Source: an uncultured Alphaproteobacteria bacterium (GTDB taxonomy: Bacteria > Pseudomonadota > Alphaproteobacteria > CAAHEQ01 > UBA3637). From it: a stretch of DNA of 64,000 nt. This document shows positions 62,773 to 63,198 of this stretch, in pieces (position 1 is the first letter of the stretch; each line of letters begins with the position of its first letter). The stretch covers positions 6,469-70,468 of the forward strand of contig CASECF010000039.1 in the NCBI GenBank assembly GCA_949286245.1, read 5' to 3'. The notes under the pieces were generated by a model. That model saw nothing but the letters and a program-made list of their open reading frames with translations. It was not told the origin of the DNA and ran no database searches. Made by a program: the position numbers and the translations under genes.

Positions 62773-63198
62773 ATGTTTTATTTTATAAATAGTTTTATCT
62801 TTTGCATGATGTTTGTATGTGGGGTTGCGGCAAAAAATATTCAATATGGATATAATGCGAAAGGGGAGTATGTTCCGACTGCGATTGGAGAGGATCGAGT
62901 GGAATATGGATATAATGCGAGGGGAGAGTATGTTCCGACTATGATTGGAGATGATCGAGTGGAATATGGATATAATGCGAGGGGAGAGTATGTTCCGACT
63001 ATGATTGGAGATGATCGAGTGGAATATGGATATAATGCGAAGGGGGATTATGCTCCGACTGAGATTGGAGATGATCGAGTGGAATATGGATATAATTCAA
63101 AAGGAGATTTTGTTCCGATGGAGATTGGTGATGATCGGATAGAGTATGGATATAATTCCAAAGGAGAATATAAACCAGTAGGTTTATTTGGTAGATAA
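62773..63198 (+). CDS. Small secreted protein made of six tandem 21-aa repeats EYGYNA[KR]GEYVPT[AM]IG[DE]DRV
   Basis: RBS aggaggaaaaATG; signal peptide FINSFIFCMMFVCGVAA; 63-bp DNA repeats at 62853-63170 are ~90 percent identical. Confidence 0.7.
   Translation: MFYFINSFIFCMMFVCGVAAKNIQYGYNAKGEYVPTAIGEDRVEYGYNARGEYVPTMIGDDRVEYGYNARGEYVPTMIGDDRVEYGYNAKGDYAPTEIGDDRVEYGYNSKGDFVPMEIGDDRIEYGYNSKGEYKPVGLFGR
62853..63170 (+). repeat. Five to six tandem 63-bp coding repeats (GTGGAATATGGATATAATGCGAGGGGAGAGTATGTTCCGACTATGATTGGAGATGATCGA)
   Basis: Two units are 100 percent identical (62907-62969 and 62970-63032). Confidence 0.8.

Follow-up and report, generated by a model that had tools for sequence, protein, structure and literature searches.

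The window analysed here is a stretch of 64,000 nucleotides from contig CASECF010000039.1 of an uncultured Alphaproteobacteria bacterium (assembly GCA_949286245.1). Close to its right end, it carries a gene for a small protein made of a putative signal peptide followed by six tandem repeats. We assign this protein with high confidence to the YD/Rhs-type repeat proteins, in its identity as well as in its fold class. A preliminary description had recognized the signal peptide and the six units with nothing else, and this layout is real, export being the putative part of it. It had also stated that the repeat resembles no nameable domain; profile comparisons, the Pfam family RHS_repeat and structural matches identify it instead as a divergent hairpin repeat of the YD/Rhs type. 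The profile, structure and database searches which that description had proposed lead to a characterised repeat class, whereas the family of free-standing mini-YD proteins to which the window protein belongs is itself previously undescribed.

The family profile (A2) was built from 55 sequences. Against the proteins of known structure it matches 8h8a (6.8e-12), 8h8b (1.1e-11) and 8qjd (2.8e-07), and also the teneurin-like protein 9ifo (3.1e-05) and Tre23 (7pq5; 5.8e-04). In these matches, the Y-x-Y-(D/N)-x-x-G registers align over several consecutive units. The Pfam family RHS_repeat (PF05593) matches 30 of the 55 members, and passes its cut-off of 22 bits in two of ten members scanned singly (L038, 29.9 bits; L044, 28.0 bits). 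The family DUF7422 (PF24197) matches 40 of the 55 members, with L010 (33.6 bits) and L038 (30.8 bits) above the 27-bit cut-off, over an alignment confined to the model positions ~19-48 of 69, where the signal peptide ends and the first hairpin follows; DUF7422 gave no match to the window protein. An exhaustive phmmer search of 1.84 billion representatives gave only 154 matches, about half of which are small members of the family, the others being mostly proteins of ~450-7,900 amino acids with 20-36% identity. Two large proteins detected by the genome scan described below (L082 and L083) display obvious YD repeats. Sub-threshold Pfam and NCBIfam matches of the window protein alone to Epiplasmin, DUF3027 and a fragment of CDP-diacylglycerol diphosphatase were rejected as compositional.

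The predicted structure is in agreement with this assignment. From alignments of 43-45 sequences, AlphaFold2 modelled the precursor with a mean predicted local distance difference test (pLDDT) of 93.2 and a predicted template modelling score (pTM) of 0.77, and the mature protein with a pLDDT of 95.2 and a pTM of 0.79. The mature model contains 12 strands, two per unit, each unit consisting of a 7-residue strand, a 5-residue loop N-A-x-G-x, a 6-residue strand Y-V-P-T-x-I and a 2-residue turn. The six units are predicted to fold into one curved 12-stranded antiparallel sheet with one beta-hairpin per unit, as in the wall of a YD shell. YD shells are also the best structural matches of the model, Foldseek giving no significant match. 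One face of the sheet would be formed in each unit by Y2, Y4, V11, T13, I15 and V20, which are the most conserved positions, and the other face by G3, Y10 and P12 together with the variable and often charged positions 1, 14 and 19. Such a continuous aromatic and aliphatic face along a 12-stranded sheet implies that the sheet must curl, pair or bind something.

The unit of ~20 residues with the core Y-x-Y-(D/N)-A-x-G is common to the window family and to the known YD/Rhs proteins, which include the Rhs effectors of the type VI secretion system, TcB/TcC of the Tc toxins and the teneurins. In both, each unit is a beta-hairpin within an antiparallel meander (predicted, for the window family). The window protein differs by the presence of Asn in place of Asp in the core, by a strict period of 20 residues and by a conserved Y-V-P in the second strand. 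Known YD proteins typically exceed ~1,000 amino acids and form a cocoon around a C-terminal toxin; they also possess a plug at the N-terminus, and an Rhs-associated core in which an aspartyl autoprotease is present. In contrast, the mature window protein comprises 121 residues with six units only, and would be exported by the Sec pathway rather than delivered by a type VI secretion system. No further domain was detected in it with Pfam and NCBIfam, and no toxin, immunity or VgrG gene is adjacent to the repeat gene. The window protein is not a whole Rhs, Tc BC or teneurin cocoon, the defining parts of which are absent.

The coordinates of the gene and of its repeats are given in the table below. 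The comparison with the closest ortholog (L009) yields a ratio of non-synonymous to synonymous substitution rates (dN/dS) of 0.16 (dN 0.125, dS 0.77); this value, together with a strong ribosome-binding site, establishes that the gene is real and under purifying selection. Tandem Repeats Finder delimits a 60-bp-period array at positions 62843-63171 (5.5 copies, 89% matches, score 455). The preliminary description had given units of 21 residues and 63 bp; the unit is of 20 residues and 60 bp, and the motif proposed at that time, EYGYNA[KR]GEYVPT[AM]IG[DE]DRV, contains itself 20 residues. All units of the window protein share the core Y-G-Y-N-A-x-G, with Asn where the YD consensus has Asp, and acidic and basic residues (D-D-R) are found at the unit junctions. 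Two units had been reported as 100% identical at the DNA level, and this holds for units 2 and 3 (60 of 60 nucleotides); the longest exact repeat is of 88 bp (62893-62980) and recurs at an offset of +60.

The signal peptide of the window protein, and with it Sec export, is suggested by several features of the family. In 60 of 64 family proteins, an (A/V)-x-A motif ends four residues ahead of the first YGYN, and the segment preceding the repeats has a median length of 24 residues and a hydrophobic core. Since this motif directly precedes unit 1, the mature protein would start at the first unit and end within the sixth. AlphaFold2 places a helix at residues 2-12 of the predicted signal peptide. 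The window sequence contains V-A-A|K, without Lys or Arg in the N-terminal region. Some phage variants of the family carry a C-x4-C pair within an N-terminal extension, which fits an extracytoplasmic location; a helical extension with this conserved pair is found in P0003, P0084, P0085, P0089 and P0090.

The genome scan, in which the repeat motif was searched in one genome per species, has recovered 75 confirmed loci; the contig of the window itself, available from ENA, is designated L001. The carriers represent ~75 species-level genomes, nearly all assembled from gut or rumen metagenomes and labelled either as Alphaproteobacteria (including Azospirillum and Rhodospirillaceae) or as Gastranaerophilales/Melainabacteria. 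The closest locus, L009, displays 79% identity and the same flanking genes. The nearest neighbours within the family almost always share the taxon label, and the mean identity across phyla (59%) is barely below that within phyla (62-63%). A six-unit member with a signal peptide rich in Ala and Leu occurs in a Kiritimatiellia bin of 68% G+C (L065, 7512-7952), all other copies being of low G+C; this outlier at the level of the phylum could result from horizontal transfer or from mis-binning.

Exactly six units with a spacing of exactly 20 residues are found in 65 family copies among the fetched loci. The inner units 2 to 5 are 72-79% identical within one protein and 62-65% identical between proteins, whatever the unit indices compared, and the position-specific features are restricted to units 1 and 6. 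Asp replaces the core Asn in 6% of the last units. Depending on the protein, the repeat region carries a net charge between -10 and +9, and it is most acidic in the window protein. Because six units are kept while the inner units are homogenised, the identity of units 2 and 3 reflects concerted evolution at constant count and not a growth of the array, contrary to the recent expansion that had been proposed. Apparent variants of 3, 4, 5 or 7 units do exist, many of which resemble assembly collapse. Near-identical orthologs differ in their counts: six units in L044, four in L077 and three in P0033; six in L038 and three in P0025; seven in L051 and four in P0015; six in L063 and five in L076. 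Several of the short variants consist of the first, one inner and the last unit, and look like what is expected when short-read assembly collapses near-identical inner units.

A word-indexed search in a collection of 15 billion proteins returned only three matches. Eight family proteins, the window protein among them, were looked up in that collection, and all are absent from it; seven of these have five or six units and the eighth has four. The collection does hold truncated, frameshifted, fused and three-unit versions. The three-match result is a database artefact and not a sign of rarity, and the collection under-reports the family.

The repeats are always C-terminal in the family, and some relatives carry unrelated N-terminal regions. 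P0093, P0096 and P0113 (394-451 residues) combine a signal peptide with a helical N-terminal domain of ~330 residues, which resembles tetratricopeptide repeats by eye and has no Pfam match in P0093, and 3-6 C-terminal YGYN units. A region of ~120 residues precedes the repeats in P0061, P0068, P0077 and P0081, with a poly-proline linker in P0061, P0068 and P0081. This presence of C-terminal repeats behind varied N-terminal regions is the behaviour of a binding or attachment module. Among the three-unit variants (P0002, P0054, P0058, P0066, P0069, P0073 and P0079 were noted), many display after the signal peptide the motif G-L-(Y/F)-D-D-I-(L/D), in some cases followed by a proline run ahead of the repeats; the phage context of this group was checked for P0002 and P0069. 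In a subgroup labelled Azospirillum/Rhodospirillales (L024, 4227-4754; L030, 2454-2981; L067, 3441-3950; P0013, P0082 and P0083), the last unit is followed by a linker rich in Ser and Asp and then by a conserved C-terminal tail LFPNYN(S/P)(K/E)TKKW(N/K)H..W, possibly a sorting or anchoring signal.

A parallel can be drawn with the choline- and cell-wall-binding repeats CW_binding_1, which are also aromatic-rich tandem hairpins of ~20 residues often used as C-terminal attachment modules; a fold that completes one turn every three hairpins would suit the three- and six-unit forms. The window family is related instead to the YD repeats, and its hosts are diderm gut bacteria. The window protein has no match to CW_binding_1 at E values up to 10, and in the scan of the 55 members (E up to 1) CW_binding_1 does not appear within the first 25 families of the list.

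Relatives of the repeat gene are found in phages at three typical accessory-gene positions. At the first one, the gene immediately follows an S24/CI-type repressor gene on the same strand, beside a RecT/YqaJ module (L002-L008, L080, L084, L090-92, L094, L095 and L097); in L090-L092 the stop codon of the repressor overlaps the start codon of the repeat gene. The second position is within a group of tail-fibre genes (Collar, Peptidase_S74) from which the repeat gene differs in strand; it is seen in L087-89 and L096, and >70 contigs carry this variant. The third position, between a lambda-type portal and an S49 head protease, is represented by L093. Seven loci come from IMG/VR viral contigs. The portal of the lambda family just upstream of the six-unit gene in L093 (1007-2475, + strand) appears split into open reading frames (ORFs) of 327 and 147 residues, either by a frameshift or by an assembly error or ORF-calling artefact. 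The prophage of L084, which carries P0047, contains an AcrIC5-like anti-CRISPR gene (7598-7807, - strand), and ArdC-N and DUF4942 genes lie a few kb from its repeat gene.

We propose that the mini-YD protein would act as a non-enzymatic binding or shielding module in the periplasm or the cell envelope, the conserved hydrophobic face being covered through self-association or through contact with an envelope ligand, with the variable face exposed. We estimate the probability of this reading, an exported YD module serving as an envelope-binding accessory protein, at roughly 0.4. The phage copies would alter the envelope of the lysogen, for instance by blocking adsorption, the tail lysin or DNA entry, and the chromosomal copy of the window would probably do the same kind of job. 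By analogy of position, the phage copies are probably lysogenic-conversion or superinfection-exclusion factors, since small exported proteins in such slots are classically of this kind; any one specific mechanism of exclusion is doubtful. Sp of T4, Llp of T5, Cor of phi80 and N15 and Ltp of TP-J34 are superinfection-exclusion or lysogenic-conversion proteins that act at the envelope. Like them, the window protein is small, putatively signal-peptide-bearing and non-enzymatic, and its relatives occupy the same slots, after a CI-type repressor or beside or opposite tail-fibre genes. It shares with them no sequence or profile similarity (PHROGs, PADLOC), and unlike them the window copy, along with the majority of six-unit copies, is located on the chromosome, outside prophages.

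Several observations weigh against the reading as a YD-type envelope module with a role in phage exclusion. Scanned alone, the window protein has no Pfam or NCBIfam match above cut-off, and the assignment of residues to the two faces derives from the strand register alone. The window copy is chromosomal and not part of a prophage, and the chromosomal copies have as neighbours a heterogeneous set of housekeeping and envelope genes. The family proteins match no PHROG or PADLOC family and no GenBank phage, and in the literature we found nothing relevant on the motif, on DUF7422, on YD repeats in connection with exclusion or on Gastranaerophilales prophages. Neither all-against-all clustering of neighbours nor a Pfam scan of 100 immediate neighbours reveals a conserved operon partner; in the latter, the families are scattered (GT2 glycosyltransferases, 8; AAA, 5; S24, 3; TetR, 2; many singletons). 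A wider formulation, in which the mini-YD proteins are a new envelope-acting accessory class of gut bacteria and temperate phages, with a minimal sheet of six (or 3+3) hairpins that blocks phages or surface recognition or that assembles into a larger YD-type structure, is for the moment speculative and rather unlikely in this exact form.

The need to bury the conserved hydrophobic face, together with two free edge strands, can also be read as the mark of a self-assembling structural subunit, the sheets of which would join by their edges or faces into extracytoplasmic fibres, a matrix or a shell, as does CsgA. Curli CsgA, a beta-solenoid, forms fibres from five hairpin-like repeats. Its size and layout are parallel to those of the window protein: 130-150 residues overall, in which 5-6 imperfect repeats of ~20 residues, rich in Asn, Gly and aromatic residues such as Tyr, come after a signal peptide. 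The existence of three- and six-unit versions would fit a modular assembly, and the net charge is free to vary between -10 and +9. The repeat motif, however, is different, that of curli being absent; no curli-like nucleator or secretion-channel gene (no csg-like operon) is found nearby and the neighbours are not conserved; the best structural match is a YD-type hairpin meander and not a beta-solenoid; AlphaFold2 gives a confident monomer model; and a matrix subunit is not expected directly downstream of a phage repressor. We regard such a subunit as an unlikely candidate. A reading as a size-variable exported antigen, in which 60-bp units recombine and change in number or sequence to evade antibodies or phages, appears improbable. 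The preliminary description had evoked such an antigen, and the DNA identity of units 2 and 3, the homogenisation of inner units within proteins, the differing unit numbers of near-identical orthologs and the highly variable, charged character of the non-conserved positions do go in this direction. Against these stand the exact count of six in 65 copies, the match of several short variants to the collapse pattern of short-read assemblers, the lack of a lipobox, sortase motif or outer-membrane anchor for holding the protein at the surface, the in-frame nature of the unit changes, which would give no on/off switching, and the overall purifying selection (dN/dS 0.16).

Twelve predicted strands with an alternation of hydrophobic and polar residues, and an aromatic C-terminal residue in 28 of 65 proteins, recall a small outer-membrane beta-barrel, acting as a mini-porin or an anchor. 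Strands of 6-7 residues are nevertheless too short for the outer membrane according to the established geometry of its proteins, the homology is to soluble YD shells, and the window protein ends in Arg, the non-aromatic ends in the family being Asn, Arg, Lys, His, Asp or Gln; such a barrel is very improbable. The hypothesis of a precursor cut between units into multiple secreted peptides (signalling peptides or ribosomally synthesised and post-translationally modified peptides), also raised in the preliminary description, is barely credible. Tandem near-identical units of 20 residues do follow a leader, with D-D-R at the junctions, but the confident folded model places the junction residues inside strands, these residues are among the most variable positions, the conserved positions (Tyr, Gly, Asn, Pro) are structural, the repeat is homologous to YD repeats, and the neighbourhood has no conserved gene for a protease, a modification enzyme or an exporter.

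Table. Coordinates of the repeat gene and of the features detected around it in the window (aa, amino acids; nt, nucleotides).
Feature	Position	Strand	Remarks
Repeat-protein ORF	62773..63198	+	141 aa
Shine-Dalgarno GGAGG	62764-62768	+	4 nt upstream of ATG; read from sequence
Predicted Sec (signal peptidase I) signal peptide MFYFINSFIFCMMFVCGVAA	62773..62832	+	cleavage predicted after V-A-A
Mature protein, 121 aa (KNI and six 20-aa YD-type hairpin units)	62833..63195	+	
Repeat unit 1	62842-62901	+	
Repeat unit 2	62902-62961	+	
Repeat unit 3	62962-63021	+	
Repeat unit 4	63022-63081	+	
Repeat unit 5	63082-63141	+	
Repeat unit 6, truncated	63142-63195	+	
TetR-family repressor gene	61921..62550	-	TetR_N 4.5e-09, TetR_C_34 5.2e-16 (Pfam)
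Operator-like palindrome 1, TGACAC-G-GTGTCA	62566..62578		16-28 nt upstream of tetR start codon; exact match
Operator-like palindrome 2, same sequence	62600..62612		34 bp centre-to-centre from palindrome 1; exact match
Promoter-like site TTGACA, 18 nt, TAGCAT	62565..62594	+	candidate; consensus scan, 10/12 matches
Second promoter-like block TTGACA, 17 nt, TAATGT	62721..62749	+	candidate; sequence and L009 alignment
Promoter-like site of Y_phosphatase3 gene	63303-63331	+	consensus scan; attribution to this gene probable
Y_phosphatase3-family gene	63364..64000, runs off window	+	Pfam 9.4e-40; downstream neighbour

The intergenic region upstream of the repeat gene separates it from a divergent gene of the TetR family. 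Translation of the latter likely begins with the ATG at 62550, which has GGAG ahead of it; a second in-frame ATG, at 62562, is an alternative. The twin 13-bp palindromes previously noticed beside this gene are present at their positions; they had been called perfect, and their two 6-bp arms are indeed paired whereas the centre base is unpaired. The sequence TGACACGGTGTCA is found exactly at both sites, and its observed count was not attained in any of 100 shuffles. Palindrome 1 is part of a 20-nt inverted repeat (I1). In L009, the 90 bp adjoining tetR, including both palindromes, are almost identical; palindrome 1 is unchanged and palindrome 2 keeps its arms, the change of its centre base (G to A) being the sole operator change. 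Of the 99 loci fetched, L001 and L009 alone contain the operator motif, and the association of TetR and operators is lineage-specific and not a trait of the family.

The first promoter-like site has its -35 element inside operator 1 and its expected transcription start in operator 2, and is kept in L009 with a spacer of 17 nt; on the opposite strand, operator 2 presents a TTGACA facing tetR. The position of this + strand site within the operators makes it plausible that TetR gates transcription toward the repeat gene, and in the lineage of the window only, this gene may be co-repressed with the tetR operon. This last step is opposed by the second promoter-like block, which lies outside the operators, 24-52 bp ahead of the ATG (TTGACA at 47-52), and through which the control by TetR may be partial or absent. 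Although the intergenic DNA around it has diverged between the two loci, this block is conserved in L009; the consensus scan did not list it, since its -10 element matches at only three of six positions. No terminator is found between the operators and this block, and Rfam reveals neither riboswitch nor leader in the intergenic regions and the whole window, its one hit being a tRNA-Met elsewhere. The arrangement resembles Tn10 tetR/tetA, where a divergent TetR-family repressor is also associated with two palindromic operators lying over promoter-like hexamers in both directions. It differs in that the neighbour is not an efflux pump, that ~160-200 bp, including a second candidate promoter, separate the operators from the start of the gene, and that the arrangement is confined to the window contig and L009.

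Downstream of tetR, a co-oriented run of genes (57271-61911, - strand) contains a DXP-synthase/transketolase-like gene (583 residues), flavodoxin and cyclophilin-like genes, a metallophosphoesterase carrying a membrane region at its N-terminus, and a CMD/cupin protein; this run is likely the primary TetR-controlled operon. On the other side of the repeat gene, no intrinsic terminator was found after it, and the Y_phosphatase3 neighbour recurs only in L009. Past the end of the window, a few kb downstream of the repeat gene (L001, 9708-12807), RimB-like, seven-transmembrane (7TM)-transglutaminase and ATP-grasp genes are adjacent and are followed by a PM0188-type sialyltransferase gene. Elsewhere in the window, a stretch of ~40 kb (positions 12000 to 52000) combines a strongly positive GC skew (0.2-0.35) with a placement of almost all long ORFs on the + strand.

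To our knowledge, YD/Rhs repeats have so far been understood only as the walls of giant single-chain shells that encapsulate toxins. The existence of a free-standing version of ~120 residues, putatively exported, shows that the YD hairpin can serve as a small autonomous module, with a conserved count of six units, and present in three phyla of gut bacteria as well as in accessory positions of temperate phages. The family offers a clean natural example of repeats that evolve in concert while their copy number stays fixed, and protein designers could find its predicted amphipathic beta-meander of interest. The Gastranaerophilales and gut Alphaproteobacteria lineages that carry it are represented here only by metagenome-assembled genomes, and we are aware of almost nothing on their phage-host biology. 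If the phage copies are true exclusion or conversion factors, they would provide a handle on the relations between phages and hosts in these lineages.

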